DNA of 64,000 nucleotides from a phage: sequence record PZ452598.1; one strand, written 5' to 3'. The notes under the pieces are model-generated. The model searched no databases, was not told the DNA's origin, and saw only the letters and a list, made by a program, of their open reading frames with translations. Shown piece after piece: positions 23,642-40,171 of the stretch; position 1 is the stretch's first letter; the number at the start of each line of letters is the position of its first letter. A program made the position numbers and the translations under genes.

Positions 23642-23659
23642 ATTAATCTCCTCAGTAGA

Positions 23660-23699
23660 AAGTAAGAACATTATACCACATCCTTGTGGCAAAGTAAAC
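23660..23699 (-). promoter_or_regulatory. T4-type early promoter
   Basis: Minus strand reads GTTTACTTTGCCACAAGGATGTGGTATAAT (-35 GTTTAC, extended -10 TGGTATAAT). Confidence 0.55.
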
Positions 23700-24721
23700 T
23701 AGTTCAGTGCATTTAGTGCATTGTTCAGTTTAGAACGTTGCTTTGTCAGATTTTGAACCCTTGACTGAGCTTGTTCTAACGCCTTTTCAGCTTCTAGCAC
23801 TTCATTGGTCGCTTTAACTAATTCAGCATCTACTGCCTTAAGAGACTTCTCAATCGCATCCGCGTGCCATTTTTCAACAGGTTTAAGACTTGGATTTTCA
23901 ACAGGAAGAAAATTCACTTTATTGAATTTCCATGCATCTTTATTACCTGAGCTATACATCCAAAATTTAGGATCGTTTGATAAGTAATTAGATAAATTTA
24001 AGTTATCTTGCACTTCTTGCTTTTTCTCTTGTGTGACTTCGTCCTTTCTCAAAAATTCATATTTAAATGAAACGATCATATCAAGTTCATATGATGTTGT
24101 ATCTAACTTAAATCGTTCAAAACGAGGTAAAATCTTAGATTGAACAGCAGCAACAACATCCATATACTTAAATGCTTCTGTCAACTGCGATTTAAGGCAT
24201 TCGCAAATTGAAAGAGAATTTTTTGTATTAGGTTTAAAGCTAATTCGTGCAGTTCTATTATTTTCTTTTAACGGTCTTACTTCCATCTGAAGAGTATAAC
24301 CATCAAATTTCAGATTCTTTAAGTTAATGTCAGAGCCTTTTAATCGACTAGCAGTAGACAAAATTTGCTTTAATTGTCTACGGAACAGAGCAATAAATCT
24401 CCATTCAATACGATAATGATTTGGATTGAAAAATCCAGATGATAAATCGACCTTACTTTGACCAACGCCTTGAACAAATAGAGGATTTTTATAATCAATA
24501 GTTTTACAGAAATCGGTGAGCTGTTCACGAGCAGTCATTTGAGTAATATACCCTGCTTTACTAAAATTACGCACCCATTCACTGCTATTCGTATACTTAA
24601 AGTGATGAATAACACGATTAACTTTATCAGGGTCTAAATTATTTTCACACAAAAATGTCATAACATCACGAGTATAGCTGGCATTACGAACCATATCTTC
24701 AATTTGAGAACGAGTTTTCAT
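23699..24721 (-). CDS. paralog 3 of the tandem family
   Basis: 340 aa. N-terminus MKTRSQIEDM, internal FRRQLKQILSTASRLKG, C-terminal coiled coil. Confidence 0.7.
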   Translation of the reverse strand: MKTRSQIEDMVRNASYTRDVMTFLCENNLDPDKVNRVIHHFKYTNSSEWVRNFSKAGYITQMTAREQLTDFCKTIDYKNPLFVQGVGQSKVDLSSGFFNPNHYRIEWRFIALFRRQLKQILSTASRLKGSDINLKNLKFDGYTLQMEVRPLKENNRTARISFKPNTKNSLSICECLKSQLTEAFKYMDVVAAVQSKILPRFERFKLDTTSYELDMIVSFKYEFLRKDEVTQEKKQEVQDNLNLSNYLSNDPKFWMYSSGNKDAWKFNKVNFLPVENPSLKPVEKWHADAIEKSLKAVDAELVKATNEVLEAEKALEQAQSRVQNLTKQRSKLNNALNALN

Positions 24722-24729
24722 GGTGTTCC

Positions 24730-25620
24730 TTAAGATTTAAGTAAATCAACAATTTTAATTAACTTTTCACGCTCAGATTTAGCTTTACTACTCAATCCAG
24801 ATAGTCTGAAAATTTCATCATCATATTGTTGAATAGAAATATTCAGCTCTTCAATTTGCTTATTAAAATAATCAATTTGTTCAGAATGTTTTTCGTTACT
24901 ACGAACTGGTACAGGTTTTGTAGGCAATTTAGTTGAACTGGATTCATTCGGGCGATAAATTAAAATGCAATTTGAACCAATCGGGCATTTAGCACCAGAT
25001 GAATATTCTAACGTTCCAGCTTCTTTTAAAACTTCAAAAGCTAAACAGAGATGATGCCCCATATTAACATAATCAGTAGAGCGAGCTCTGATGTAATAAT
25101 CATCTCCACGAGTGCTAAATTTAAAGCATTTAAGGTCTTCTGTATTATTAGTTTTAAAAATCATTTGTTTATCTAGACCTTTAGCCAATCGAGCACCTAA
25201 TGCTAATAATCGTCGTTGATTTTCCCACAAATCTGCGATCATTTGGTCAAATGATAATTTCGGCATTAGCCGACCATAAAGGTCATATCCTTTATTATAA
25301 TTGCGAAGGATTTCACTCGCATTAATACGAGACAACGCTCCAATTTTATTAAGGGCTTTCATAATACGATTAGATAAACTCATTCCAGACCCGTTTGTTC
25401 GCTGTAAATGTTTTTCTAATCCAAATCCAATATCAACTTTAAATTTATCTAAAATTTCAGCATGAACATCTCTGTCAATAACATTCAAATCCAAAGTTGG
25501 GTTAAATCTATGAAAAAATTTATCTGGCTCTCCACGACGTAAAACAGTCCATTCATTCATCATTTTTTTATTAACTAAAGATTTAATTACTGCGTTGACA
25601 TTATTAATTACTACTGACAT
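24730..25620 (-). CDS. paralog 4 of the tandem family; start trimmed
   Basis: Track ORF 304 aa uses a GTG start. ATG at 25620 (MSVVINNVN) has SD AGGAAAAT. Shares QRRLLALGARLAKG and a C-terminal coiled coil. Confidence 0.65.
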   Translation of the reverse strand: MSVVINNVNAVIKSLVNKKMMNEWTVLRRGEPDKFFHRFNPTLDLNVIDRDVHAEILDKFKVDIGFGLEKHLQRTNGSGMSLSNRIMKALNKIGALSRINASEILRNYNKGYDLYGRLMPKLSFDQMIADLWENQRRLLALGARLAKGLDKQMIFKTNNTEDLKCFKFSTRGDDYYIRARSTDYVNMGHHLCLAFEVLKEAGTLEYSSGAKCPIGSNCILIYRPNESSSTKLPTKPVPVRSNEKHSEQIDYFNKQIEELNISIQQYDDEIFRLSGLSSKAKSEREKLIKIVDLLKS

Positions 25621-25627
25621 ATTTTCC

Positions 25628-26029
25628 TCACTCAATTTTACCAATTACGCGGAATAAGATTGAACAGACTATATAAGTACCACATATAGATTGAACTAAT
25701 GCCATTCCAAAGAACCAAACAATATTATCAAACCATGTCTGTTTTACGTCGAAAGGACGTAAACTTACAGTAATATTATCACCTTTTTCTATTGAAGAAT
25801 ACATCTCTGGGGAAATATATTCACTAAATCTATAACCGTCTTTGAGTTCATATACAGCAATAAACGATAAACTAGACCCCTTTCCTTGAGTTCCTGTAAG
25901 GGTATTAACTACAGTAACATCATAATCTTTATAATGCATATAATCATTAATTGCGTAATAACCATATGCAATTACTATACATAAACAACATATCAATAAA
26001 TTCAATCTTTTAATTATCAACTGTTTCAT
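25628..26029 (-). CDS. membrane protein
   Basis: 133-aa ORF with N-terminal and C-terminal hydrophobic helices. Confidence 0.6.
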   Translation of the reverse strand: MKQLIIKRLNLLICCLCIVIAYGYYAINDYMHYKDYDVTVVNTLTGTQGKGSSLSFIAVYELKDGYRFSEYISPEMYSSIEKGDNITVSLRPFDVKQTWFDNIVWFFGMALVQSICGTYIVCSILFRVIGKIE

Positions 26030-26084
26030 AATAATCTCAATTAAAAGGGCTTAGAACCATTATACCATCCTTGGTATAAAGCGG

Positions 26085-26612
26085 TTATGCGAGTACCGTA
26101 TTTAACCGTTCTTCAAACTTCCGAAGAGTGTTCTGGCGTTCAGCTCTTTGCTTTTTGTAAGTTTCAATACGCTCTGAAATGAGAGTGTATCGTTCATTTA
26201 CTGATTCTTTCATAAAATCAGGAATTTCACGAGAAGCTTTAATCTCGTCAAATTTATCAATAACAGCTTGCTCTTCAGCAATTAAGTTATCATACATCAA
26301 AATATCTTTCTTGATGAACTCAATATCTTCTTGAGTTACACGAGATAATTTAGATGCTTTATCCTTTTTGTACTGTTCGTTAGTATCACGAGACCAGTGT
26401 AATGTACGATTTTTATTCGTATTCTTGTAAATTTCTACAATACCAATCTCATCGATAATAACGATCCAATTCCAACGGGATTTGTAAATTTGTCCTCCAT
26501 TAACAGTGATTTCACCTCCGATTGAGATGTCATTAAAGAACTTGCTTTGTGCTTCTGATTTAAATTTACCATCGTTGTAATTTACCAGGTTGAAAATATC
26601 TTTAGCGTTCAT
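26085..26612 (-). CDS. hypothetical protein; start trimmed
   Basis: Track ORF 190 aa reads through the promoter/leader. ATG MNAKDIFNLV follows SD GGAGGAA. Confidence 0.6.
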   Translation of the reverse strand: MNAKDIFNLVNYNDGKFKSEAQSKFFNDISIGGEITVNGGQIYKSRWNWIVIIDEIGIVEIYKNTNKNRTLHWSRDTNEQYKKDKASKLSRVTQEDIEFIKKDILMYDNLIAEEQAVIDKFDEIKASREIPDFMKESVNERYTLISERIETYKKQRAERQNTLRKFEERLNTVLA

Positions 26613-26629
26613 TTTGTGTTCCTCCGTAG

Positions 26630-26672
26630 TTGATAGTTGTATAGTACCACAGCTCAAACGGAAAGTAAACCG
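26630..26672 (-). promoter_or_regulatory. T4-type early promoter with conserved leader
   Basis: Minus strand reads GTTTACTTTCCGTTTGAGCTGTGGTACTATACAACTATCAACTACGGAGGAA. Confidence 0.55.
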
Positions 26673-26708
26673 GTAAAATGAAAAAAAGTCTCCCGAAGGA
26701 GACTAATG

Positions 26709-27095
26709 TTATTCGAGGGAAAGAAGATACTTACTCTGGTAAAACATTCCAGTAATATCATCTATCGTGCTTTGGATGGCTGGAGGCATTTCTTTATAAA
26801 TGCTGTTAGATTGGTCTAGTATGCGATCAATCATTTTAATTGTGTCGGTAGGAAGTTTACTGGCATCTGGAATTGAAGGCGTGTATTTTCGACCAGAATA
26901 CCCCAAATATTGCTCACCAAATTTATCAATCAAATCTGGCAACTCGGAAAAAATAAAATCGTATGCTTTGTGTCTAGCATAACTTTTAGTTTCAAAATGT
27001 GCAGAATGAAAATAAGCTTGTGCAGCCATTAATAAACCTAAGTATTCATCTGCCTTTGAAGGTTTTCCACTTTGTGAAAAGTCGCTGAATTTCAT
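26709..27095 (-). CDS. hypothetical protein (T4 rI.-1 position)
   Basis: 128-aa ORF immediately 3' of rI. Confidence 0.6.
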   Translation of the reverse strand: MKFSDFSQSGKPSKADEYLGLLMAAQAYFHSAHFETKSYARHKAYDFIFSELPDLIDKFGEQYLGYSGRKYTPSIPDASKLPTDTIKMIDRILDQSNSIYKEMPPAIQSTIDDITGMFYQSKYLLSLE

Positions 27096-27385
27096 TCAGT
27101 CTCCAATTTAATGTTCATAATTCTAGCGTATGATTGTGCCATCTCCGCGCCTCGCTCTATACATTCAAAATCAGAAGAGCACGGGTCATTTTTATAGGTC
27201 GTTCTCATAAAACTATAGAATTGTTCAGACGATTCTACGCTTTTATTTTCAAAAAGCATATAAACGTGCCTAATACCAGATTCCATAAATTTATCAAAAT
27301 GAGGATCGACATTCGCTTCAATCGATGGAGATAAAACAAATGACAATCCTAGCATGGCAAAAAGTGCTGTTGCTTTTAAGGCCAT
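27092..27385 (-). CDS. rI: lysis-inhibition regulator RI (antiholin)
   Basis: 97-aa ORF with signal-anchor N-terminus (MALKATALFAMLGLSFVLSPSIEA). Length and sequence as remembered for T4 RI. Confidence 0.85.
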   Translation of the reverse strand: MALKATALFAMLGLSFVLSPSIEANVDPHFDKFMESGIRHVYMLFENKSVESSEQFYSFMRTTYKNDPCSSDFECIERGAEMAQSYARIMNIKLETE

Positions 27386-27397
27386 AAAGGCCTCCTA

Positions 27398-27610
27398 TCA
27401 TTTTTGTCCTGTATTTACTTTGTGCCGATGCACGGCCTTAACTTTATCAAGGTATTTTTCAAAATTTCGCAATCTAGTATAGTCTGCCGGAGATTGGTTG
27501 AGTGATACTTCTCGACGCAAAGCTGAAATGATATTTCCAACTTCCCTACGAATTTCATCTAATTGAAGAACAGTAAGATTGCGAAGTTGCTTTTCAGTTA
27601 ATTGTAGCAT
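27398..27610 (-). CDS. hypothetical protein (T4 rI.1 position)
   Basis: 70-aa ORF between tk and rI. Confidence 0.55.
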
Positions 27611-27652
27611 ATATACCCCTTTAGTTAGATAAACCTATTTATAACTTTTGCA

Positions 27653-28234
27653 CTAACCGAGCTTTTTAGTTAATTCATTCCAATGTTTTCTACACAAAGA
27701 AACATAAATTTCATCACCAATACAAATTTGATTACCTTCTTTAACTGGTGTTCCATCTTCCATTAATCGAGCTGTCATAATCGCTTTTTTACCACAATGA
27801 CAAACTGCTTTTAGTTCAATAAGTTTATCTGCAATCGCTAAAAGTTCTTTAGAACCTTCAAATAATTTTCCAGCGAAATCAGTCCTTAGCCCATAAGCCA
27901 TAACAGGAACATTATATGTATCAACAATTCGGCTCAATTGATGCACCTGTTCAGTTTTTAAAAACTGAGCTTCATCTACAAATACGCAATGAATATCTTT
28001 TTGTGCTTCAGCCCATTTATAGAACTCGAAAATATCCATATCATCTGTAATAATATTCGCTTCCTGCTTAATTCCAATGCGAGAAACGACTTCACAGACA
28101 GAATCGCGAGTATCAATAGCAGGCTTAAGAACTAATACACTCATTCCACGTTCTTTATAATTATGTGCAGCAGTCAAAAGAGAAGCAGATTTTCCAGCAT
28201 TCATTGCTGCATAAGTAAAAATTAAACTCGCCAT
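27653..28234 (-). CDS. tk: thymidine kinase
   Basis: 193-aa ORF with P-loop (AAMNAGKSASLL) and Zn-finger cysteines (CHCGKK...CRKHW). Length matches T4 Tk. Confidence 0.95.
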   Translation of the reverse strand: MASLIFTYAAMNAGKSASLLTAAHNYKERGMSVLVLKPAIDTRDSVCEVVSRIGIKQEANIITDDMDIFEFYKWAEAQKDIHCVFVDEAQFLKTEQVHQLSRIVDTYNVPVMAYGLRTDFAGKLFEGSKELLAIADKLIELKAVCHCGKKAIMTARLMEDGTPVKEGNQICIGDEIYVSLCRKHWNELTKKLG

Positions 28235-28235
28235 C

Positions 28236-28424
28236 TTAGTCCTTAGTTAAATTTTCTAAATATGTTTCTAAATCATTTTCAGCTTTATCGATAGATTTTA
28301 CTAATTCGTAATATGTTTCGGCATCTCCATATTCAGAAGATATTTCAAAAGACAAATCCTTTTCTAAACTAATAATTTCACCAACTAAAAATAATATTTC
28401 GTTCTTTTGTTCGCGAGTAATCAT
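28236..28424 (-). CDS. small acidic protein (T4 tk.1 position)
   Basis: 62 aa. Paralogous to the next ORF (shared TREQKNEILFLVGEI / SKEQKDTLFSLIHEV pattern). Confidence 0.55.
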   Translation of the reverse strand: MITREQKNEILFLVGEIISLEKDLSFEISSEYGDAETYYELVKSIDKAENDLETYLENLTKD

Positions 28425-28612
28425 AAGGAATTTATATAATCAATGAGTTCTTGTTCTTTATTATCGAATTCTTTAGAAAGTTCTTCGTACTCGTTTGCGC
28501 TAAAAGGACCGCATTCATTACAAACTTTTTCCAATTCACTATTTTTATCCATAACTTCGTGGATAAGAGAAAAGAGTGTGTCTTTTTGTTCTTTGCTTAA
28601 ACTCATAACCAT
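28421..28612 (-). CDS. small acidic protein (T4 tk.2 position)
   Basis: 63 aa. Paralog of the preceding ORF. Confidence 0.55.
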   Translation of the reverse strand: MVMSLSKEQKDTLFSLIHEVMDKNSELEKVCNECGPFSANEYEELSKEFDNKEQELIDYINSL

Positions 28613-28830
28613 GTCACCTTTAAGCAGTATTCTTCTACATGCTGTTTACGACCTTTCTTATCAATAAAGGTATATTCAACGAATGTTCCAATGTAGTCTT
28701 TATCTACATCATGTGGACTATTAATTGGACATTTAGTGCGACAAATGCGTTCCCATTGACGAATAATTACTGCCTTATTCTTTGGGTCATATGGATGTGG
28801 ATAATGTATATTCATAATAATGGTTCCCAA
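28603..28830 (-). CDS. hypothetical protein (T4 tk.3 position)
   Basis: 75-aa ORF. Confidence 0.5.
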   Translation of the reverse strand: MGTIIMNIHYPHPYDPKNKAVIIRQWERICRTKCPINSPHDVDKDYIGTFVEYTFIDKKGRKQHVEEYCLKVTWL

Positions 28831-29279
28831 TCAACAATCACAATTTCTAATTTAGAGGAATATGTATCTAAAATCCCCTCAATAATATCCCAGTTCCCTT
28901 TACCTATGCCTGCACCAATCCTAGGCATATAGATTGTAGGTTTAATCAGTTTATTTTCACCAAACTCATTTAATTCTAACATACAATTCATTAAAGCGGA
29001 ATACTCAAAATTTGGCCCTGGTTGAAATTGAGTATAAAGATTGAAGCAGTAAGCTTTATGAGTCCTAAAGTATTTTTCATAGACTGAGTAAGAACCGAGT
29101 TTAGTTACATCACCCCATTCAGTCTGTAATTTATCAGCTTCCAAAATTTTAGGGAAAGCTTTGGTTAATTGACCCGCTACGCCTGAACCCATAGTATGAA
29201 AACAATTACATCCATGTGCAATATTTTTACCTTCAGCGAAAAGGGCGACAATATCGCCCTTGATATATTTTACAATCAT
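28812..29279 (-). CDS. macro-domain-like protein (DarG/TARG1-type candidate ADP-ribosyl hydrolase); T4 tk.4 position
   Basis: 155 aa. N-terminal KGDI...IAHGCNCFHTMGSGVAGQL and distal PRIGAGIGKGNWD resemble macro-domain phosphate-binding loops. No search was run. Confidence 0.55.
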   Translation of the reverse strand: MIVKYIKGDIVALFAEGKNIAHGCNCFHTMGSGVAGQLTKAFPKILEADKLQTEWGDVTKLGSYSVYEKYFRTHKAYCFNLYTQFQPGPNFEYSALMNCMLELNEFGENKLIKPTIYMPRIGAGIGKGNWDIIEGILDTYSSKLEIVIVDWEPLL

Positions 29280-29623
29280 CTAGTACTCAATCCTCGATTA
29301 TAAGAATCTACCAAACGGTCAACCATTGAATGACAAGCGGCTTTATCTTTCTCCTCCGCAACTGAACATTCTAAGGTATTCCACTTTTTAGCATATCGTT
29401 TTAACAATGTATCGTTTTTGTATCTGCTTGATTTATCTCTTTCTCCGTCTTTATATGCATATATTAATTTCTGTGCAAATTCAGCTTGGCATGCCTTATT
29501 TTTCCCACAATAATCTGCCGCAGTGCGGTTTACATATTCTCTAATTTCAGTATATGATGTATCTGCTGACGCAGAAGCAGAAAATGAAATTAATCCTATA
29601 CATAAAACCAAAATTTTAGTCAT
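29276..29623 (-). CDS. vs: valyl-tRNA synthetase modifier Vs (secreted, signal peptide)
   Basis: 115-aa ORF with signal peptide (MTKILVLCIGLISFSASASA). Position between tk.4 and regB as in T4. Confidence 0.7.
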   Translation of the reverse strand: MTKILVLCIGLISFSASASADTSYTEIREYVNRTAADYCGKNKACQAEFAQKLIYAYKDGERDKSSRYKNDTLLKRYAKKWNTLECSVAEEKDKAACHSMVDRLVDSYNRGLSTR

Positions 29624-30161
29624 TTACTATTTCCAAAAGTTTATTATTTTTAAGGTAATTAGCCTTTTCTAGGACTTCAGAAGCATATTTAGAACCTGCT
29701 TTAACATTCCATCCCGAATTATAAGAGGATATTGCTTTTCTTATATCGCCCTTATGTATATTTAACCAATAAGAAAGTTCAATGTACGCCCAGGAAGCTG
29801 AATTGGATCGTTTATTCAACATTCTTTTTATTTCAGCATCGGTCATATTATAACCAAGTTCCTTAACTCTTGCTCGCATAGTAGGCAAATAATTTTGGAA
29901 CATTCCGTAGGCGTGATGCTTTGGTTTAGATTTTAAATTAACTCCGCCAGAGCTTTCTTGCCATAAAATGGCAGCCATTATATGACCTAATCCGCTCTTG
30001 TGGATATTTTTGTGTGTTTTATATTTTCCATCCTTAGAAAATTGTTCCCCGAATTGATACGCGTAACGCATGTTATCGAGTTGGACATTACTGAAAGTAT
30101 GCTCGGAGCTATGTGCCATCATTGAAATGGCCAATAGACCAGCGAGTAGTGCTTTTCTCAT
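29616..30161 (-). CDS. secreted lytic-transglycosylase-like protein (T4 vs.1 position)
   Basis: 181 aa with signal peptide and SLT-like motifs (ILWQESSGG, YGMFQ). Confidence 0.65.
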   Translation of the reverse strand: MRKALLAGLLAISMMAHSSEHTFSNVQLDNMRYAYQFGEQFSKDGKYKTHKNIHKSGLGHIMAAILWQESSGGVNLKSKPKHHAYGMFQNYLPTMRARVKELGYNMTDAEIKRMLNKRSNSASWAYIELSYWLNIHKGDIRKAISSYNSGWNVKAGSKYASEVLEKANYLKNNKLLEIVND

Positions 30162-30168
30162 GCTTACC

Positions 30169-30630
30169 TCATTGAGTTTTAATTACTGCTTTAGAAGCCT
30201 TTCCTGGTAAACGACGACTGTTGATAATTGCCATCCTACATTGAAGTGACGGGTCTTTGAACTTCTCGTTAGGTTTACAAACTGTAAATCCAAGCCAAAG
30301 ATTTCCATCTGTGATTTCTAAACGTCCAGGACGATATTCAACCCCATCAATAAAATCCTCGTCAATGTCAGGACGCGGAGGCATACTCAGGAATTCATTA
30401 ACTTCTAAAACATGGTCTTTTATTTTATGGAATAATTCAAAAACGTATGTCTCATCAATCTCCCGTTGAATTGCGCGATCAAGAAGATGTTGAGAATATT
30501 TTAGATGAAACGATGAGACTCCTGCTGCTTTTGATGCCTCACGAATCTCATTGTTAATTTGACGAAACTCCGACTCAAAGTGACGACGAAGCTTATTTCG
30601 ACGGATAAAAACTTCTGTATTGATAGTCAT
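30169..30630 (-). CDS. regB: sequence-specific endoribonuclease RegB (cleaves GGAG in early mRNA)
   Basis: 153-aa ORF preceded by its own early promoter. Length matches T4 RegB. Confidence 0.85.
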   Translation of the reverse strand: MTINTEVFIRRNKLRRHFESEFRQINNEIREASKAAGVSSFHLKYSQHLLDRAIQREIDETYVFELFHKIKDHVLEVNEFLSMPPRPDIDEDFIDGVEYRPGRLEITDGNLWLGFTVCKPNEKFKDPSLQCRMAIINSRRLPGKASKAVIKTQ

Positions 30631-30649
30631 GTTATTCTCCTCTTAACTG

Positions 30650-30690
30650 ATAGAAAAATTATACCACAGTCAAGAGGAAAAGTAAACAGT
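30650..30690 (-). promoter_or_regulatory. T4-type early promoter for regB
   Basis: Minus strand reads GTTTACTTTTCCTCTTGACTGTGGTATAAT. Confidence 0.55.
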
Positions 30691-30968
30691 TATTCTTTAA
30701 ATCTAATCAATTTATTCATAGACTTTGAAACTTCGGCACGAACCTCATGTAGATTTTTGAGCTGTTCAAGACGCTGCGTATAGTAAGCAATTTCATCTTC
30801 TTCGAGACAGTCCTGCGAATCTTCTTTAAGATAACGTGCATAGTCCTGGAAAGCGTTACGGACTACTTCCTGGAAGTCATCAAGACTTTGAATTTTCTTA
30901 GGAGCAACAGATACACGACGAGGGGCAGTATAATACTCATAACCAAACCCTGCGCTTAATTGAGCCAT
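30690..30968 (-). CDS. hypothetical protein (T4 vs.3 position); start trimmed
   Basis: Track ORF 106 aa. Likely start [13 protein letters not shown], whose ATG overlaps the upstream stop (TAATG). Confidence 0.5.
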
Positions 30969-31270
30969 TAGTATTTTTCCTCTGGTTGGAACACTGCACG
31001 ACAAGCCCACATACTGGCTTCTTTGAGTTTCGTTTTAGCAATAGTTAACTGATCGAGACTTTCAGCATAATTCTTCGCGAATTCACAGTCTTCGCAATTA
31101 TCTAGTGCTTCCCAGAATTCATCATATAAAGCATCAAAGATAAGTCCTAAACGAACTTCAGCGTCTTTAATAGCATTTACTTTACCGATTTTCTCTTCAG
31201 TATGTGGTTTATAACCCTTAATATCTTCAATCATATTTGACTTCCTCACCAGTACATAAATCGTATTCAA
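30968..31270 (-). CDS. candidate anti-CBASS cyclic-oligonucleotide sponge (Acb2-like; T4 vs.4 position)
   Basis: 100-aa track ORF with a TTG start; first ATG is at codon 13. Identity rests on position (second ORF after regB) and size. The sequence itself was not recognised. Confidence 0.45.
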
Positions 31271-31448
31271 CTAAACGAATAGGTTCATGAATGCCATAGC
31301 CTTGAACAGAAATTTCTGTCGTAGGATAAATTCCATCAATATCACCCATATTCCACGCTTCATTAAATTGCTGTTCGCCTGAGTTACTAAACCACTCGGC
31401 GAAAGCATTTAGCACATCTTCAGAACCTTCAATAATTATCTTTGCCAT
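31227..31448 (-). CDS. hypothetical acidic protein (T4 vs.5 position)
   Basis: 73-aa ORF. Confidence 0.5.
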   Translation of the reverse strand: MAKIIIEGSEDVLNAFAEWFSNSGEQQFNEAWNMGDIDGIYPTTEISVQGYGIHEPIRLVEYDLCTGEEVKYD

Positions 31449-31810
31449 TACAAACTTTCAGTAAAGGTACGAGCGATAACGTCGCGCTGCTGTTCCGGAG
31501 TCAGAGAGTTAAAGCGAACTGCATAACCGGATACACGGATGGTCAGCTGCGGATATTTTTCCGGATGCTTAACTGCATCTTCCAGAGTTTCACGACGCAG
31601 AACGTTAACGTTCAGGTGTTGACCACCTTCAATTTTAACTGTAGGTTGTGGCTCAATTTCAATTTCACGGGCATGCAAACCATAGAAAATTTCTGGGTCT
31701 ACAAAAGAGTCCTCTTTAAAGGTTTTAGAGACAATAATTCGTGCTTGAATACCATCTTCAAAATAAATAGTACCTTTATGTGTGCCTTCAAGAATTTGAT
31801 ATGCTTTCAT
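31448..31810 (-). CDS. autonomous glycyl-radical cofactor (GrcA/YfiD homolog; T4 Y06I)
   Basis: 120 aa. C-terminal half ([63 protein letters not shown]) is essentially the E. coli YfiD/PFL C-terminus with glycyl-radical motif RVSGY. Confidence 0.85.
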
Positions 31811-31817
31811 ATAAACC

Positions 31818-32147
31818 TCAATTAGAAAATAAATTTATCCAAGATTGTTCTTTAATTAAAAATGGCTCAGAATCATATGCCATTAAACTTTGCGTAATTA
31901 ATCCTTTAAAAGGTCCATCAATAAATTCCATGGTAAAATATGGAATTTTATTCATTAGCCGTGCATTAGGAGCAGTGCACAAAACTCTGCATCCTTTGAA
32001 TACGCCTTTTTGTAATTTGTATTGCTTGGGATAAAATTCGCTCAAAATGTTATTTTTTGCCAAAATTTCAAAATGATTCACCAATTTATTTTTAATAGTT
32101 TTTGGCGAAAAATAAAGATATTCGAAAAGCTGAGTGTCTGTCATCAT
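31818..32147 (-). CDS. hypothetical protein (T4 vs.7 position); start trimmed
   Basis: Track ORF 126 aa. Likely start [10 protein letters not shown] with ATGA-type overlap of the upstream stop. Confidence 0.5.
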
Positions 32148-32794
32148 TGCATTCCGATTACGAAAAACTGTGGACGAGTAATACCACCAATGCAACATTT
32201 ACTATTACAGCAGTAGTGTACGGTGTCAATATGGACACTATAAATCTTATCCATATCAGGAGATTTGACAGGCTCATCAATTATATACAAAATTCGCGAA
32301 AGCTTTAAACCTCTGAACTTGCTTCCTTTATTACCAATAAAACTGCGTACAGAATCAGTAAATAAACGAAAACGTATATCATCATTAGAATAACGCGAAA
32401 ATTCCTTTTTGATGTTATTTGCAGAAATTTTAGCATAAGCTGAAGTATTAGAAAGAACAATAACTGTTCCGCCATCATACAACCAATTAGCAGCAAAGTT
32501 AGTCACAGCAATTGATTTACCGGATTGACGTCCACCATCTAGTCGAAGTGTACAATACTGTTTAAGTAAGTCTTCAAATGGCGGGATATATTCGTTTTTA
32601 CAAATTTCTTCTACTCTAGCATCAGAATGGTGTGTAAAAGCATTCATCAGGGATAGATAAGGACCAGTTAAAAATGTTCTCATTTCTTCTCTATAAGTTT
32701 GGGCCATTCCGTGGCGCATGAATTGTCCATTTCTGTATTTACCCATTACCGCGCTTGGGCTCGACCTTATTACAGGTTGGCGGGAATCCCTCAT
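32144..32794 (-). CDS. P-loop NTPase-like protein (T4 vs.8 position)
   Basis: 216 aa with Walker A-like GGRQSGKS and Walker B-like ILYIIDEP. Cysteine-rich C-terminus (HYCCNSKCC). Confidence 0.55.
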   Translation of the reverse strand: MRDSRQPVIRSSPSAVMGKYRNGQFMRHGMAQTYREEMRTFLTGPYLSLMNAFTHHSDARVEEICKNEYIPPFEDLLKQYCTLRLDGGRQSGKSIAVTNFAANWLYDGGTVIVLSNTSAYAKISANNIKKEFSRYSNDDIRFRLFTDSVRSFIGNKGSKFRGLKLSRILYIIDEPVKSPDMDKIYSVHIDTVHYCCNSKCCIGGITRPQFFVIGMQ

Positions 32795-32820
32795 ATAATC
32801 ATGAGGTCCAGGTTGTTCCC

Positions 32821-33237
32821 TTATGCATAAATCGCCTTACCGTAGTATTTGTACCAAGTAGGACGTTGTGCAATTTTTTCATCTAAACGAGCTTGTGATA
32901 TAGCAATAGAAGCTTCATGGGGAATATAATCACCACGGAATTCCTGAGGAATATCACTAATATCCTGGACTGTAGTATCCTTGATATTAAAACCACGTTT
33001 TAAACATTCAGCTATAAGCTCAATTTGACGTTTACGTAAGAACTCGAGCTTATCGTAAAAGAATGTAACATGACCTGCGCCAAGGATAAAAGTAGGACTG
33101 ATTTTAAAATCACGAACACGTTTACCGTTAGCAACATGCTTACGAACTGCACCAAAAACACGCGGCAATTCACGATATTCAGCCATTAAGTGTTGGTCAG
33201 CCAATTCAGATACTAAAGTAAGGTTGATACGAGTCAT
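32821..33237 (-). CDS. denV: endonuclease V (pyrimidine-dimer DNA glycosylase/AP lyase)
   Basis: 138-aa ORF ([34 protein letters not shown]...). Matches T4 DenV in length and sequence. Confidence 0.95.
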
Positions 33238-33297
33238 TTTAGTGTTCTCCTGTAGTTGATAGGTCTATAGTATCATACCTACAGGAGATGTAAACTG

Positions 33298-33600
33298 TTA
33301 TTTATCTTTAATTGCTTTAGCTGCTTCGATAGCCGCTTGCTGAAGGTCATCCATAGACATGCCGAACTTAGAAGCAAAGTTATCAATTTTCTTTTCGACG
33401 GCATTCAAAGGCTTGGCCTGTTTACCTTCATTAGCGCCAGGAAGAGCGAGAATACGCTCTCTGTCAATATAAAGGCTTACAAGTTTCTTACGGTCTTTAT
33501 CGGGCAAATCATGAAATGAATGGGCCTTTTTATTTACAGCGGCTTCTAATTTACCTGCGCCCACTCGCGCTTCGGCAATAAATTCTTGATATGTTTTCAT
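33298..33600 (-). CDS. ipII: internal protein II
   Basis: 100 aa with capsid-targeting N-terminus MKTYQEFIAEA shared with ipIII. Lysine-rich. Confidence 0.85.
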   Translation of the reverse strand: MKTYQEFIAEARVGAGKLEAAVNKKAHSFHDLPDKDRKKLVSLYIDRERILALPGANEGKQAKPLNAVEKKIDNFASKFGMSMDDLQQAAIEAAKAIKDK

Positions 33601-33615
33601 ATGTTTCCTTTAAAT
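33569..33615 (-). repeat. 47-nt exact direct repeat, copy 1 (ipII 5' end plus leader)
   Basis: gcttcggcaataaattcttgatatgttttcatatgtttcctttaaat is identical at 34266-34312. Covers the SD and first 10 codons. Confidence 0.9.
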
Positions 33616-33639
33616 GTAAATATTTTTATTATTCTATCC

Positions 33640-33683
33640 TAGAATTGTGATAATATATTCACAATTCTAGGAGTTGTAAACTG
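33640..33683 (-). promoter_or_regulatory. T4-type early promoter upstream of ipII
   Basis: Minus strand has GTTTAC (-35) and an AT-rich -10 (TATATTAT) at appropriate spacing. Confidence 0.5.
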
Positions 33684-33715
33684 CTTTTATTTAAGCGTCC
33701 CAAGTATAAGCTTTA

Positions 33716-34297
33716 TTAAGAATTACCACGGGCTGCATTAGCAACGGCGTAAGCGTACTGAATATTAGCGTCTTTAAACTTACCTTTAGAGGTATCTATT
33801 TCTGCCTTAAAGCCGCCTTTAGTCATAACATCGGCAAATTCTTTACGGAAAGCCATTGCATCAAGACCTTTCCATGATGATTTATGCTTGGCAAATTCAA
33901 GACCTGCGAAGTTGACAGCTTTAGCCAATTTATTATCAATGACCCATTTACCGGCTTTAGGCACAAACTTCGGGCCTTTCTGTTTAGAGAACAGTTTTAA
34001 ATTCCAGCGGCGAAGGTCTGCATCAGCTTTAACAAATTCTGAGTCTAAGTTACTAGCAACAACATCTTCAATATGAGCAAATTTAAGTCCGTCAACTTCA
34101 ATATTTAAATCGGTACGCCAGCGAAGTCCTTCCCAAGCGAAGGCTTTAAAGTCGGAAGCCTTTGTAGCTAAGTACCGTTCAATAGGAGCTGTTTTAGGGT
34201 CAAAGCCGTTTCCTGATCGGTAGGTCCACTCATCTTTGTTAATGCCTTTGGCCTTTACTACAGAAGCTTCGGCAATAAATTCTTGATATGTTTTCAT
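33716..34297 (-). CDS. ipIII: internal protein III
   Basis: 193 aa, N-terminus MKTYQEFIAEASVVKAKG. Length matches T4 IPIII. Confidence 0.85.
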   Translation of the reverse strand: MKTYQEFIAEASVVKAKGINKDEWTYRSGNGFDPKTAPIERYLATKASDFKAFAWEGLRWRTDLNIEVDGLKFAHIEDVVASNLDSEFVKADADLRRWNLKLFSKQKGPKFVPKAGKWVIDNKLAKAVNFAGLEFAKHKSSWKGLDAMAFRKEFADVMTKGGFKAEIDTSKGKFKDANIQYAYAVANAARGNS

Positions 34298-34312
34298 ATG
34301 TTTCCTTTAAAT
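34266..34312 (-). repeat. 47-nt exact direct repeat, copy 2 (ipIII 5' end plus leader)
   Basis: Identical to 33569-33615. Confidence 0.9.
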
Positions 34313-34334
34313 ATTTTAATTAGTAATTGTCTAT

Positions 34335-34382
34335 TCAAGTAATTGTGAATATACTATCACAATTCCAAGAGAAAGTAAACAG
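34335..34382 (-). promoter_or_regulatory. T4-type early promoter upstream of ipIII
   Basis: Minus strand reads GTTTACTTTCTCTTGGAATTGTGATAGTATATTCAC. Confidence 0.5.
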
Positions 34383-34384
34383 CT

Positions 34385-35353
<969 letters not shown>

Positions 35354-35372
<19 letters not shown>

Positions 35373-35545
35373 TCAGTGATAAAGTTATTTAAATTTTGAG
35401 CATATTTCTTTTCATCAAAAATCTTTTGCTGTCTGCGTAACCGCCATGGCATTTCAATGAACATACGCCATATTCCTGATAATACTGCTGCTGTAAAAAT
35501 ATTAACAAGTATAGTTAAAAGAATCCAATCGCCTATTCTGTCCAT
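35354..35545 (-). CDS. small membrane protein, tandem family member
   Basis: 63 aa with N-terminal TM helix. C-terminus NFITECRKLK is encoded by the junction cassette tgcaggaaa. Confidence 0.55.
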
Positions 35546-35841
35546 TGGATTTTTATAAAAAAGTAAAATACGAATGATGATATAGGAAGACTAATGATAT
35601 ACCACAGAAGAACCTTCTTATCTGTGAACCAATCAGCATTCGTTAACTTAGCGCGACCATTTTGAATACACACGAATTTATCATCTGTTACAGTAAATGG
35701 CTTAGCTGCTTGATATCCCATTCTAAACTCCCTAATTAATCGTTTCTTTGTATCTTCGGAACAACCATTCCAATCAACTCTATCAACTGGAATGCCATCA
35801 TCCCCATCATCTAAATCATACCAGCGAGTTTTTAAAATCAT
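35533..35841 (-). CDS. small protein with C-terminal TM helix
   Basis: 102-aa ORF. ATGA overlap with the upstream gene. Confidence 0.55.
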   Translation of the reverse strand: MILKTRWYDLDDGDDGIPVDRVDWNGCSEDTKKRLIREFRMGYQAAKPFTVTDDKFVCIQNGRAKLTNADWFTDKKVLLWYIISLPISSFVFYFFIKIQWTE

Positions 35842-36200
35842 TTAATTTTCCTGCAATCAATCACAAACTCTTTCATTGATTCATTTTCAATATAAGACAT
35901 GTAGCTATTATATTCTTTTAATTGTATTTTGTAATCCTTTTTTCTTTGCCAATTTATTTTAAAATTATCATAATGAAAATATAAAATGATACCAAAGAAT
36001 GAAAACAATGAAATAATTTTAGTATAACAAAGCTCGCTCCAAACTTCTATTATATCTACTGTACCACTGATTTTTAAAATAAAACAGTCAATTAATAGTC
36101 CAATAAGACTACCTGTAAGAGCTGCAGCCAACGCCACAGCAAAAATTAAAAATGACTCAGAAAACGAATATTTGACTTTATTTAGCTTTGGCTTTTGCAT
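35838..36200 (-). CDS. two-TM membrane protein, tandem family member
   Basis: 120 aa, starts MQKPKL. C-terminus EFVIDCRKIK. Confidence 0.6.
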   Translation of the reverse strand: MQKPKLNKVKYSFSESFLIFAVALAAALTGSLIGLLIDCFILKISGTVDIIEVWSELCYTKIISLFSFFGIILYFHYDNFKINWQRKKDYKIQLKEYNSYMSYIENESMKEFVIDCRKIK

Positions 36201-36574
36201 CGTGATTCCTTAACAAATTTCATAATTTCATTAAATTCATACTCAGCAAGTTTAAGCTGGTGTTCCTTTTTAATCTTTTTGCACTGGGCTTTCCAATCAC
36301 GTACGCGTTTACGATAATGTCTTCCTTGATACCAGTATCCTATCCAATTTACGGGTACTAATAAAAATGGAACTACCAATGGAAGAGTTAGCATTAACAT
36401 AATTATTACGCCAGAATCAATATCAGTCATAACATCTAAAACACCTCCAATAATCAATAGAATTACAAATGATATAGCTATCACAGGACCTATTAATACA
36501 TCAGTAGAAATTATCTGGCGCTTTAATTCATACTTCAAAGGTTTACTTGGAAGGTATAGTGATGGCTTTGACAT
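36182..36574 (-). CDS. two-TM membrane protein, tandem family member; start trimmed
   Basis: Track ORF starts at TTG. ATG at MSKPSLYL has SD AAGGAA. C-terminus MKFVKESRCKS. Confidence 0.6.
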   Translation of the reverse strand: MSKPSLYLPSKPLKYELKRQIISTDVLIGPVIAISFVILLIIGGVLDVMTDIDSGVIIMLMLTLPLVVPFLLVPVNWIGYWYQGRHYRKRVRDWKAQCKKIKKEHQLKLAEYEFNEIMKFVKESRCKSQS

Positions 36575-37151
36575 ATTCTCTACATTCCTTAACAAATTTT
36601 TCTAGTAATAAATCACTTTCAAAATTAGGATTTTCCACTAATTTATCAAAAAGATCATCAACAATATTCAAGATATTTCTTTTACTAAGAATACGTTTAT
36701 TTTCATGCTTCGTTTCAGAATCAACTATAAGAGTAAAGAAATATTTCTTTCCCTGAAATTTTACCGTAGTATCAATATAAAATAAATTTGACTTTTGTAA
36801 ATTACGTTTAAACCATGCGTCACTTAAACTATAAACACCGAGATAATCAAAATCGTCGTTTAAATAACAAACTGACCATTCAGGAGAAATGAAATCAGTA
36901 AATTCAACATCAAAATCACATGTCAATGAATGAATTGATTCAATACTGTTAATAAGTATTCCAGGACGTATTAAAGACTTTTTACCTCTGGAAAATCTTC
37001 CAGAAAGACTTTCATCAGTTTCATATGAAGAACCCCAATAATAATTACGTCCTTTTGCCATATGTTTAAGAGCATTTAGTAATTGGTCTGGAACATCAAC
37101 GTGTCTTTGGAACTCTTCAAACATTGAATTGAAATCACTTTGCATTTTCAT
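36543..37151 (-). CDS. hypothetical protein
   Basis: 202 aa. C-terminus EKFVKECREY is encoded by the same junction cassette as the membrane paralogs. Confidence 0.6.
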   Translation of the reverse strand: MKMQSDFNSMFEEFQRHVDVPDQLLNALKHMAKGRNYYWGSSYETDESLSGRFSRGKKSLIRPGILINSIESIHSLTCDFDVEFTDFISPEWSVCYLNDDFDYLGVYSLSDAWFKRNLQKSNLFYIDTTVKFQGKKYFFTLIVDSETKHENKRILSKRNILNIVDDLFDKLVENPNFESDLLLEKFVKECREYVKAITIPSK

Positions 37152-37173
37152 TCCTATTTACTCCAAGTAATAG

Positions 37174-37187
37174 GGGGCCGAAGCCCC
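37174..37187 (-). promoter_or_regulatory. UUCG-tetraloop hairpin between ORFs
   Basis: Plus-strand ggggccgaagcccc directly 3' of the 37194-37787 ORF stop. Confidence 0.45.
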
Positions 37188-37193
37188 TTATCA

Positions 37194-37787
37194 TTATTTC
37201 AGAGAATTAATATATTCCTGAACATCGGCAGAGGTAGTTTCAACCCCAGAAATATTACCATTAAAGGTTTCAACTCGAGCAAGAGTATCTTCAATATCAA
37301 CCTTAGTCAGTGCTGCAATTTCAACTACATCATCAGCAGTACTAATTCCAAGGGCATTTGCTGCACGAGTTTCACGGATATATTCCAATTTAACTGCAAG
37401 TTCTTGGCGAGCATCATCTAACTCAACTACTTTCTTGGCGATTTCAATTCGCATTTCAGCATAACCATCAGCTTTAGTAGTCAGCTGTTCAGCTGTTCGA
37501 CGATATAGCAAGCCGAGTTTAGCATGCATTGTTACATCTTGACCTTCGGAAAGAAGCTTGCGAATTTCACGCTCTTTTGATTCGGCCTGTTTATTCTTTT
37601 CAACAATAAGTTCACGAATACGTTTTTCTTCATTAATAGATTTAACAGAAGCAGTTTTTAGGTCTTTAATTTTATCAAGTAGTTTTGCTGCTGCAGCAGT
37701 ATACTGTTCTTCAACAGATAGATTTTTAGCCATTGCAGAACCAAGTTTAGTGCGAATAAACTCAACAATTTTCTTCAGTGTGTTCAT
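37194..37787 (-). CDS. hypothetical coiled-coil protein
   Basis: 197 aa, largely heptad/charged sequence. Confidence 0.6.
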
Positions 37788-37809
37788 AGTATTTCCTTAG
37801 GTTGGTATA

Positions 37810-37851
37810 ATTAGATAATATAATATCACGTTTCTAATAGATTGTAAACTT
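37810..37851 (-). promoter_or_regulatory. T4-type early promoter
   Basis: Minus strand reads GTTTACAATCTATTAGAAACGTGATATTAT. Confidence 0.5.
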
Positions 37852-38185
37852 ATTCTTCGTCTAGCTCGTCGATAAAGGCGTTGATGGCCTCGATAATGGC
37901 ATCATTGATAGCCAATAAAATAAAATCATCGTCAGTACCTTTAGAAGATTCTAAAGCATTGATATATGCTTGGTTGACGAGTTCCCAAGCCTTTTTAAAA
38001 TAAGGAGCTTCATCATCAGGACAAATATCCCGCACGCCTTCAAAGATACGTTTGGCATAATCTAACACCCATTGTACAGGCATGTTTTGAGAACGTTCGT
38101 TAAACTCTTTAAAGTCCTTAGATTCAAAAAGCTCTTCAGGATAATTATTTCTATTACAAAAAGCTTTACTAAAGTTACGTTTCAT
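37850..38185 (-). CDS. hypothetical protein
   Basis: 111-aa ORF with SD GAGGAAAA. Confidence 0.55.
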   Translation of the reverse strand: MKRNFSKAFCNRNNYPEELFESKDFKEFNERSQNMPVQWVLDYAKRIFEGVRDICPDDEAPYFKKAWELVNQAYINALESSKGTDDDFILLAINDAIIEAINAFIDELDEE

Positions 38186-38199
38186 AATGTTTTCCTCAT

Positions 38200-38243
38200 T
38201 TGTATAGGCTCATAATATCTCAATCATGAGCCTATGTAAACTT
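38200..38243 (-). promoter_or_regulatory. T4-type early promoter
   Basis: Minus strand reads GTTTACATAGGCTCATGATTGAGATATTAT. Confidence 0.5.
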
Positions 38244-38505
38244 ATTTCATATTATTGAAATATTCTTCTGCGATTTCGTCGTTATCATGGTAAACTTTAG
38301 AAGACAGTTTAACATAACTTTCAGCAGTGAACATGTTAATCACAACCTTTACAGTATACCACTGACCGTCTTCATTACCCATTACTGCGTAAGTTTCAAA
38401 CATCGGATGGTCAGGACCGATAACTTTAATATCATTCACCGTACGACCGAAATCTTCTGAAACACATTTCATAAAGAAGTTGAAAAGTTCACCGTAATTA
38501 TCCAT
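38242..38505 (-). CDS. hypothetical protein; start trimmed
   Basis: Track ORF 108 aa reads through the promoter/leader. ATG MDNYGELF follows SD GGAGAA. Confidence 0.5.
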   Translation of the reverse strand: MDNYGELFNFFMKCVSEDFGRTVNDIKVIGPDHPMFETYAVMGNEDGQWYTVKVVINMFTAESYVKLSSKVYHDNDEIAEEYFNNMK

Positions 38506-38539
38506 TTTATTCTCCAAGTTATTTTCTGTATCAGTAGTT

Positions 38540-38580
38540 GATAGTTGTATAGTACCATGGAAGAACAAGGATGTAAACAG
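38540..38580 (-). promoter_or_regulatory. T4-type early promoter with conserved leader
   Basis: Minus strand reads GTTTACATCCTTGTTCTTCCATGGTACTATACAACTATCAACTACTGA. Confidence 0.55.
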
Positions 38581-38704
38581 TTTTGTGAAAAAATTTTTAA
38601 AAAGTTTTAGGGAATTCTAGGGCGGAGAGGGGCAATTAAAAGATAGGATAATATATTATAAAGGGTATAAACTAAATGATGCCTAGAGAGGTCTGGAAAG
38701 GCTT

Positions 38705-39050
38705 AGATACCAAAAAGCCCCAACCTTTCGGTCGGGGCTAAGCCTTGCGGCAACCTTGTCGGGGTTCCACCTGCCAAGGCAAGTGTTTGTACGAAACGCC
38801 GGGATTCGAACCCGGTTATTAAGTAGTTGACGCTACTCAATATTTTTAAAAGGCCATATCTCAACCATATCCGAACGTTCCGTCAAAAACGCTACTCGGC
38901 TTACGGCAAAGATATTTCCTCGAATCGATAATTTGGTGCGCCGTTTCTGCTGTGATGTAAGAGGGCATCAATAAACGCAAAGATTATTAACGCAATTCCT
39001 TACTCAGGGAACATCAGTCCGACGACTTACCGGTAGCGACCCGGTTTCTC
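38705..39050 (-). ncRNA. region expected to encode two small stable RNAs (T4 species 1/2, rnaC/rnaD-like) ending in a terminator hairpin
   Basis: About 350 nt with no ORF, 3' of tRNA-Arg. Contains a tRNA-like T-arm (GGGUUCGAAUCCCGG) and a terminal hairpin plus U-run near 38709-38737. Boundaries not resolved. Confidence 0.4.
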
Positions 39051-39052
39051 AT

Positions 39053-39127
39053 TTGGTATCCCGCCCTGGGATCGAACCAGGACCGCAAACTTAGAAGGAT
39101 CGTATGCTATCCATTACACCAGCGGGA
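39053..39127 (-). tRNA. tRNA-Arg (anticodon UCU), CCA encoded
   Basis: Hand-folded: acceptor GUCCCGC/GCGGGAU, T-arm GGUUCGAUCC, anticodon loop CUUCUAA, 3' ACCA. Confidence 0.8.
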
Positions 39128-39133
39128 CGTAAT

Positions 39134-39799: not shown

Positions 39800-39840
39800 A
39801 AATATCTCCTATTTCTAAGAGTATTTATGTTCTCAAAATA

Positions 39841-39914
39841 TGACCCAGACCAGATTTGAACTGGTAACCTTTCCCTTATGAGGGGACTGCTGCTAACCAT
39901 TGAGCTACAGGGCC
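39841..39914 (-). tRNA. tRNA with anticodon CAU (Ile in T4; Met by anticodon alone)
   Basis: Hand-folded: T-loop UUCAAAU, anticodon loop CUCAUAA, no encoded CCA. One acceptor-stem mismatch, so ends approximate. Confidence 0.7.
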
Positions 39915-39915
39915 T

Positions 39916-39991
39916 TGGTGCTGATTGACGGAATCGAACCGCCGACATCCTCATTACAAGTGAGGTGCTCTACCTACTGAGCTAAATCAGC
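39916..39991 (-). tRNA. tRNA-Thr (UGU), CCA encoded
   Basis: Acceptor GCUGAUU/AAUCAGC, D-arm AGCUCAGUAGGUAGAGC, anticodon loop CUUGUAA, T-arm GGUUCGAUUCC. Confidence 0.8.
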
Positions 39992-39998
39992 AAAATTA

Positions 39999-40085: not shown

Positions 40086-40087
40086 AG

Positions 40088-40161: not shown

Positions 40162-40171
40162 TAAATTAAAT

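Follow-up and report, generated by a model that had tools for sequence, protein, structure and literature searches.

A phage T4 spare-part gene, vs.6, whose glycyl-radical half has probably been overwritten by host grcA

The gene vs.6 of bacteriophage T4 joins two halves of different character: a 5′ half of phage type and a 3′ half, encoding the glycyl-radical domain, that carries a 178-nt run identical to Escherichia coli grcA. On the comparisons presented here, the best reading is that vs.6 is an old phage gene whose radical domain appears to have been recently and repeatedly overwritten by host grcA. Taken as the overall explanation, an old phage gene for a spare part of pyruvate formate-lyase (PFL) with a host-overwritten radical half has, in our estimate, a probability of roughly 0.8. 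The DNA analysed is a stretch of 64,000 nt, called here the window. Over positions 30000-34000 it matches several T4 records at 100% and the reference NC_000866 at 99.7%, identifying the phage as T4.

vs.6 (31448..31810, minus strand) is an ATG-to-TAA open reading frame encoding a protein of 120 aa, Vs.6 or Y06I, in a region identical to T4 records. Inspection of the sequence revealed a Shine-Dalgarno GAGG (31816..31819, minus strand) 5 nt upstream of the ATG. The T4 gene order here is denV, vs.8, vs.7, vs.6, vs.5, vs.4, vs.3, regB, and vs.6 lies within the co-directional cluster denV to vs, in which stop and start codons overlap; in particular, the ATG of vs.5 (31227..31448, minus strand) overlaps the vs.6 stop codon (TAATG). 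A promoter and terminator consensus scan of 30600..33400 gave no excess over shuffled sequences (10 versus 9.4 and 2 versus 1.6, respectively), and since the counts were not above shuffles, no dedicated vs.6 promoter or terminator is claimed. The RefSeq product name is autonomous glycyl radical cofactor GrcA. Vs.6 matched Pfam Gly_radical (PF01228) with E=2.8e-18 and 66.8 bits (cutoff 22.2), E. coli GrcA in PDB 6OWR with E=8.6e-42 and, over its full length, PHROG 1209 with E=1e-62, a family listed as 'unknown function'. As a stand-alone protein of ~14 kDa it fits the autonomous glycyl radical cofactor class (GrcA-YfiD, IPR011140), and its C-terminal part has the glycyl-radical domain of PFL type, including the RVSGY glycine motif, expected of this class. 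With TIGR04365, the NCBIfam bacterial GrcA equivalog, it scored 153.3 bits, under the curated cutoff of 170 bits, and was therefore placed not with the bacterial equivalog but in PHROG 1209, a phage subfamily that has diverged within the functional class.

That vs.6 encodes a phage spare part of the GrcA type is already known and annotated in reference genomes. Wagner et al. (2001, BBRC 285:456; co-workers of Knappe), in the account given by Andorfer et al. (2021, PMC8683613), described both YfiD and T4 Y06I as spare parts. As relayed there, PFL-activating enzyme installs a glycyl radical on each of them, and each forms a complex with oxygen-cleaved PFL in which activity is restored. These two are the only validated spare-part proteins (PMC8683613). 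According to the same source, residues 61-127 of YfiD are folded like PFL 693-759; the disordered residues 1-60 are required if YfiD is to bind cleaved PFL tightly and to be activated efficiently. In vivo, the radical passes from GrcA G102 to PflB C419 (PMC12338860). Nolan et al. (2006) found vs.6 in 6/6 T4-like genomes compared and listed its Gly_radical match. The gene was not marked as essential by T4 genetics. An earlier note on this DNA, made from the letters alone, had proposed that such a spare part may repair oxygen-damaged host PFL, which matches what Wagner et al. are reported to have found with Y06I (via PMC8683613).

Residues E61-L120 of Vs.6 are identical to GrcA E68-L127 at 60/60 positions; the wording of the earlier note, for which the last 60 residues were 'almost identical' to GrcA, thus understates the case. 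The shared residues are nearly the whole structured domain (GrcA 61-127), the one which replaces PFL 693-759. They include the glycyl-radical motif RVSGYAVRF (residues 92-100, 31511..31537, minus strand, checked by translation) with the radical glycine G95 (codon 31526..31528, minus strand), which corresponds to G102 of GrcA and G734 of PflB (numbered as in PMC12338860). The likeness to the PFL C-terminus, motif included, was likewise recovered, with 63 residues aligned to PflB residues 697-759 (E=5e-26). Like E. coli GrcA (YfiD; UniProt P68066, PDB 6OWR), Vs.6 is a small stand-alone protein, and the two have the same activity in the secondary account, that is, radicalisation by PFL-AE followed by rescue of O2-cleaved PFL. 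With PflB (PDB 1H16, 2PFL) it shares the fold element and the RVSGYAVRF motif of the C-terminal radical domain, the piece of PflB for which Vs.6 substitutes, whereas the ~700-residue catalytic barrel and the Cys418/Cys419 pair are absent from Vs.6. The N-terminal half, in contrast, departs from GrcA: it is 7 residues shorter, HMM and phmmer alignments start at residue 20-22 with 14/38 aa identical, and residues 1-21 are unaligned. The genetic contexts differ as well, grcA being chromosomal next to ung and vs.6 lying in a cluster of T4 genes whose stop and start codons overlap.

At the nucleotide level the change between the two halves is abrupt. Codons 1-59 (31634..31810, minus strand) are of phage type, with low identity to grcA and 34% GC, close to the 0.35 of the whole window; the presumed counterpart of this segment in GrcA is the disordered half that binds cleaved PFL (PMC8683613). 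Codons 60-119 (31455..31632, minus strand), encoding the structured glycyl-radical domain, form the patch of 178 nt identical to E. coli grcA, with a grcA-like GC content of 47%. This patch is an exact substring of an E. coli grcA locus (L001), and one more base on either side breaks the match. It opens at the second base of codon 60 and closes 7 nt ahead of the stop codon, host identity ending 7 nt short of the vs.6/vs.5 junction, and no similarity to grcA was seen 3′ of it. Upstream, over the alignable codons 22-59 only, 56/114 nt (49%) and 14/38 aa are identical to grcA (111 nt counted plus codon 59, which has three mismatches). Nucleotide identity thus goes from 49% upstream to 98% in the 3′ block (Fisher p=6e-22), and third-position matches from 15/37 (codons 22-58) to 60/62 (codons 59-120). 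The possibility that the likeness to grcA was a short chance match, raised in the earlier note, is set aside by these protein and nucleotide alignments and in particular by the perfect run of 178 nt.

We compared this identity with that among bacterial genes. A constrained sequence diverging slowly would not account for it, since bacterial grcA genes with equal or nearly equal residues vary widely at synonymous sites. Over a core of 168 nt, T4 and E. coli grcA are identical at 168/168 positions, including 56/56 third positions. Against 85 bacterial grcA genes (80 species representatives and 5 Klebsiella loci) the median for T4 is 143/168, with 34/56 third positions. Over a 186-nt block, E. coli and Salmonella grcA agree at 157/186 positions (29 sites differ, dS 0.98), and E. 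coli and Citrobacter grcA at 172/186 (dS 0.39). When the 64-kb window was searched by megablast against 5,426 complete E. coli genomes, the only match was 31444..31632, which matched grcA in all 5,426 genomes, at up to 98.4%, and pflB at ~79%; the patch itself is ~79% identical to pflB versus 100% to grcA. The gene shows what is expected of a host-phage mosaic made by gene conversion: an abrupt change of identity that includes synonymous sites, a shift in composition, and a donor specific to the host genus, with different hosts giving different tracts. A sequencing artefact was considered and ruled out, the patch being present in independent T4 sequences back to X04567.

One could ask if the nucleotide identity arose by selection or convergence, through protein constraint or mimicry of the host grcA mRNA, rather than by transfer of DNA. 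The radical domain is indeed highly conserved in protein across all lineages, and two phage loci (L019 and L020) carry the Klebsiella-type residues LLDAVEHP on an otherwise native-looking block, a hint of selection for host matching. We nevertheless consider this explanation very improbable. All 56 core third positions equal those of E. coli, whereas bacterial orthologues with the same residues differ at a median of 22/56; GC3 follows the host (0.43 for the E. coli type, 0.66 for the Klebsiella type) against an AT-rich phage background; and phages with native blocks encode the same protein motifs with different codons. The transfer is, as judged from sequence comparison, of host-to-phage direction, because the patch has host composition and the block sits among vertically diverging bacterial orthologues.

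The earlier note took the near-identity to indicate a relatively recent acquisition from the host. This holds for the 3′ half (codons 60-120), which appears to be recent host DNA; it does not hold for the 5′ half, which is old, diverged and of phage type, nor for the gene as a whole, which is conserved across T4-like, T5-like and jumbo phages. By tblastn, homologues of vs.6 were found in 1,589 phage records, and 80 IMG/VR loci were examined as well. The carriers include T4-like phages of Escherichia, Klebsiella, Enterobacter, Cronobacter, Yersinia and Aeromonas, T5-like phages (homologues with ~52% aa identity) and jumbo phages. Their N-terminal halves have a common pattern, MKAYQIL.G..GTIY.ED...AR.IVSK..ED, unlike the bacterial one. 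Among phages the 5′ half (codons 1-59) is under purifying selection, with dN/dS of about 0.15-0.18 (dN 0.071 and dS 0.46 between T4 and Mosigvirus; dN 0.21 and dS 1.19 between T4 and Jiaodavirus).

These data bear directly on a simpler account in which T4 lately took up a complete E. coli grcA. Such a capture would explain the last 60 residues identical to GrcA and the essentially E. coli DNA of that half. It would leave unexplained codons 1-59, which are AT-rich, share only ~49% of nucleotides and 14/38 aa with grcA and are 7 codons shorter. It also conflicts with the phage-type N-terminal half common to hundreds of phages under purifying selection, with the presence of vs.6 in all six T4-like genomes of Nolan et al. 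(2006), and with the fact that identity goes no further than the alignable region on either side, without host flanks. Recent capture of the whole gene was therefore rejected, since the 5′ half is phage-type, old and under purifying selection; we leave it only a marginal chance.

In most lineages of PHROG 1209, the radical domain is also native: AT-rich and 75-83% identical to any bacterial grcA. Native blocks, without a close bacterial match, were found in Karamvirus, Pseudotevenvirus, the 174-180-kb group, T5-like, jumbo and Aeromonas-type phages, as opposed to blocks of Escherichia type in T4, other Tequatrovirus and Mosigvirus and of Klebsiella type in Jiaodavirus. Native radical domains occur in E. 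coli phages too (the T5-like group and a type of 138 aa, L032). The presence of native domains in many lineages implies that an exact match to the host is not required for retention of the gene.

We then considered how the host-type tracts are distributed. In Mosigvirus (E. coli phages ATK47 and mobillu), the 5′ halves are identical to T4 at 155-160/177 positions and the cores to E. coli grcA at 164-166/168. Genes flanking vs.6 are 70-90% identical between T4 and Mosigvirus, and the patch is the most conserved 180 nt of a 2.6-kb comparison of the two. If the patch had been inherited from the T4/Mosigvirus ancestor, T4 should differ from the donor at ~10 synonymous positions (from a per-lineage dS of ~0.23 over ~42 synonymous sites), versus 0 seen. 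Close relatives also differ in where the tract ends on its 3′ side: in T4 the likeness to E. coli continues through ACT GAA AG, and in most other Tequatrovirus and Mosigvirus phage-type codons (TTC ACG GAA AGT TTA) resume 3 to 12 nt earlier.

A parallel situation was found in phages of Klebsiella. In Jiaodavirus (KP179, Nispero and KPV15), the 5′ half is T4-like and AT-rich, and the cores are identical to chromosomal Klebsiella grcA at 154-163/168 positions, with up to 52/56 third positions. Klebsiella grcA alleles differ from one another about as much (162/168). The GC3 of these cores is 0.57-0.66, compared with 0.66 for Klebsiella grcA, and their residues are the Klebsiella-type LLDAVEHP rather than LEDAVKHP. 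The Klebsiella loci used (L169-L173) have the context ung-grcA-DEAD helicase on contigs of up to 1.66 Mb; the closest allele is that of L170 (GCA_021910665.1), in a protein cluster named Klebsiella variicola GrcA. A search of the phage database gave 108 records with 95-99% identity to the Klebsiella block. Among the matches listed, those at >=94.6% are all from Klebsiella or Raoultella phages, and E. coli phages reach 84-88%. A third genus is suggested by an uncultured phage (L023) with a 72-nt tract identical to Haemophilus parainfluenzae grcA at 70/72 positions, versus 59/72 for a relative (L024) whose 5′ half is identical to that of L023 at 176/180.

Not all hosts gave such tracts. No Salmonella-type tract was found in the phage database, the best match being 87.6%, and the phenomenon is therefore not universal. 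Tracts of Enterobacter, Cronobacter or other host type were sought and rejected in Pseudotevenvirus, Karamvirus and the 174-180-kb phages (ECF2, KaAlpha and L009-L020), with cores at most ~86% identical to the 85 sampled grcA genes; because no sampled grcA is closer than ~86%, these blocks look native.

In the Escherichia and Klebsiella cases the tract starts at GAAGG (EGGQHLNV...) and runs almost to the stop codon. It is exactly the segment over which phage and host DNA can be aligned, as expected for homologous or homeologous recombination. Conversion by host DNA in each lineage has an alternative, in that a single conversion may have been followed by spread from phage to phage through recombination. 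The wider reading, in which the radical half evolves with host grcA through independent conversions in at least three genera (Escherichia, Klebsiella and Haemophilus) and this is both real and previously undescribed, seems to us evenly balanced between being right and wrong. As part of this reading, tract ends vary and the tracts appear to be far more recent than their carrier phage lineages; the driver would be either selection for an exact fit to PflA and PflB or a self-reinforcing recombination hot spot.

For the function of Vs.6, the favoured explanation, an old spare-part gene for PFL, would run as follows. Oxygen would cleave PflB at its radical glycine G734 and Vs.6 would bind the cleaved enzyme. 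Host PflA would then put the radical on G95, and the C-terminal domain of Vs.6 would replace the lost PflB C-terminus, restoring the turnover of pyruvate into acetyl-CoA plus formate. The steps of binding, radicalisation and rescue are those reported in vitro for Y06I (Wagner et al. 2001, as summarised in PMC8683613). The phage would benefit, we suppose, from a PFL kept running under micro-oxic gut conditions for acetyl-CoA, ATP and above all formate, which could in turn serve as reductant for phage NrdD. As to the mosaic itself, host DNA fragments produced during infection could be recombined into the phage gene by the T4 recombination machinery, as established T4 biology would allow. Once present, perfect homology over 178 nt would make further conversion easier and let this half track the host allele, with or without selection for the exact match. 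We know of no mutant phenotype for vs.6.

NrdD and NrdG are indeed encoded by the same phage, as the earlier note had stated. nrdG, encoding the radical-SAM enzyme that activates the phage anaerobic ribonucleotide reductase (RNR), lies at 15172..15726 (minus strand; Pfam Fer4_12 3e-50 and Radical_SAM), and exon 2 of nrdD, the formate-dependent class III enzyme, at 16261..17535 (minus strand; Pfam NRDD 2.7e-122, Gly_radical 9e-26). Most characterised class III RNRs use formate as their reductant, and T4 NrdD has been discussed as a formate binder (PMC4493059). Four genomes of large phages (the jumbo phages L027, L029 and L030, and L050) have a vs.6 homologue directly between nrdD and nrdG, and in Aeromonas phages (H98/H99) the homologue abuts nrdG. 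We infer a functional link of vs.6 to nrdD and nrdG.

The same arrangement could mean that Vs.6 serves the phage RNR instead of host PFL, as a spare domain of NrdD or as a radical carrier or substrate of NrdG, and Nolan et al. (2006) proposed a role of vs.6 in nucleotide metabolism. However, the radical domain is of PFL type, being that of host GrcA and close to PflB 697-759 (E=5e-26). BLASTP of Vs.6 against T4 NrdD exon 2 showed no significant similarity (E=1.5, and not at the glycine motif), on which ground the NrdD spare part was rejected. Moreover, the sequence that converted vs.6 is host grcA and not nrdD, which shows the partner that it resembles, and the literature, at least as relayed by PMC8683613, reports rescue of PFL. 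PFL supplying formate to NrdD explains the synteny equally. We regard an RNR partner in place of PFL as unlikely, although it keeps more weight than the other alternatives weighed here. Under the PFL spare-part explanation, the order nrdD-homologue-nrdG supports the idea that phages may keep PFL alive for formate in an oxygen-fluctuating gut.

An opposite role is also conceivable, in which Vs.6 acts as a decoy, sequestering host PflA or cleaved PflB and shutting down host fermentation. It has in its favour only the general point that phages often encode inhibitors mimicking host proteins. A complete host-identical radical domain, glycine included, has however been kept; restoration of PFL activity is reported (in the account of PMC8683613); and phage DNA synthesis that depends on NrdD needs formate (PMC4493059). 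We give the decoy scarcely any credence.

Beyond the known function, the new detail under our preferred reading is that the working half of vs.6 is probably E. coli DNA set in an old phage gene, with parallels in phages of other hosts. No report of a vs.6/grcA mosaic was found in the searchable literature; a mention in older key papers is possible and the novelty is to that extent uncertain. Intragenic recombination between host and phage is known for photosynthesis genes of cyanophages, for example psbA. There, as for vs.6, a virulent phage keeps a host-derived metabolic gene and swaps segments with the host copy, resulting in a mosaic. T4 differs in being an enterobacterial T-even phage with hydroxymethylcytosine DNA which degrades host DNA, and the vs.6 tract differs in covering one complete structural domain with limits that match those of homology at the DNA level.

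The mosaic suggests that even a virulent T-even phage exchanges DNA with the host chromosome where homology exists. If true, it would clearly exemplify continuing homologous exchange between the host chromosome and a strictly virulent phage that degrades host DNA and contains hydroxymethylcytosine. That portion of Vs.6 which has to fit the host's PflA and PflB would follow the host genus, and the residues E/K versus L/E at GrcA positions 85 and 89 would constitute a natural experiment on the host compatibility of the radical domain. vs.6 could also offer a simple assay locus for host-to-phage recombination.

A minor observation concerns annotation. With TIGR01255 (pyruvate formate-lyase), Vs.6 scored 88.9 bits versus a cutoff of 994 and thus falls outside this family; only its residues 56-120 aligned, on model positions 680-744. 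The 'pyruvate formate-lyase' labels carried by several phage records are misnomers.

The final 186 nt of the vs.6-like gene (the 3′ radical-domain block) of L023, an uncultured phage contig, were compared with the grcA gene of Haemophilus parainfluenzae (L143). Over a 72-nt tract, at block positions 97-168, 70 of the 72 nucleotides were identical, while L024, a near-identical relative of L023, matched Haemophilus grcA at 59/72 over this tract. The tract in L023 looks like a short and very recent conversion tract, involving a third host genus.

L019 and L020 are the vs.6 homologues of two 174-kb Klebsiella-type phages. Both encode the Klebsiella-type residues LLDAVEHP, yet with native-looking codons, and only about 150 of the 186 block nucleotides are identical to Klebsiella grcA. 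Either a conversion occurred long ago and the sequence has drifted since, or selection has favoured agreement with the protein variant of the host. In the T4 window (1..64000), no E. coli similarity was detected by megablast against 5,426 complete E. coli genomes outside the grcA tract at 31444..31632.

In several phages the vs.6 homologue lies between nrdD and nrdG or next to nrdG, a placement that points to a functional connection with anaerobic ribonucleotide reduction. The homologue sits directly in the middle, in the order nrdD, vs.6 homologue, nrdG, in three jumbo phages of 345-357 kb (L027, L029 and L030; in L027, nrdD at 5-415, the vs.6-like gene at 1501-1845 and nrdG at 2308-2754), and it is also directly flanked by both genes in a 235-kb phage (L050). 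In the Aeromonas phages PX29 and phiWae14, nrdG adjoins the vs.6 homologue. In the window, the nrdG-nrdD region is flanked and interrupted by homing-endonuclease-like ORFs (HNH; GIY-YIG/NUMOD1) at 10611..11405, 15632..16264 and 17562..18338, all on the minus strand. Such ORFs agree with what is known of T4, which has mobile endonuclease genes and an intron in nrdD.

Some homologues of vs.6 seem to be damaged. An in-frame stop interrupts L037 and L039, a frameshift reduces the ORF to 80 aa in the IMG/VR copy of Klebsiella phage KPV15 (L028), and the 3′ block match in phage RB55 (H126) is 13 nt shorter. Apparently some lineages can do without the gene, unless the sequences themselves contain errors. 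The T4 gene vs.5 (31227..31448, minus strand) differs from the T4 reference NC_000866 by a one-base indel at 31398 and a 2-nt swap at 31260-31261; its ORF has 73 aa in the window vs 58 aa in RefSeq. Either the strains differ here or NC_000866 contains a sequencing error of long standing.

The family containing T4 Vs.6 in PHROGs v4 (phrog_1209) is labelled 'unknown function'. In several GenBank phage records the product of 120 aa is entered as 'pyruvate formate-lyase', '2-ketobutyrate formate-lyase' or 'acetyltransferase'. Such labels are misnomers or gaps in the annotation.
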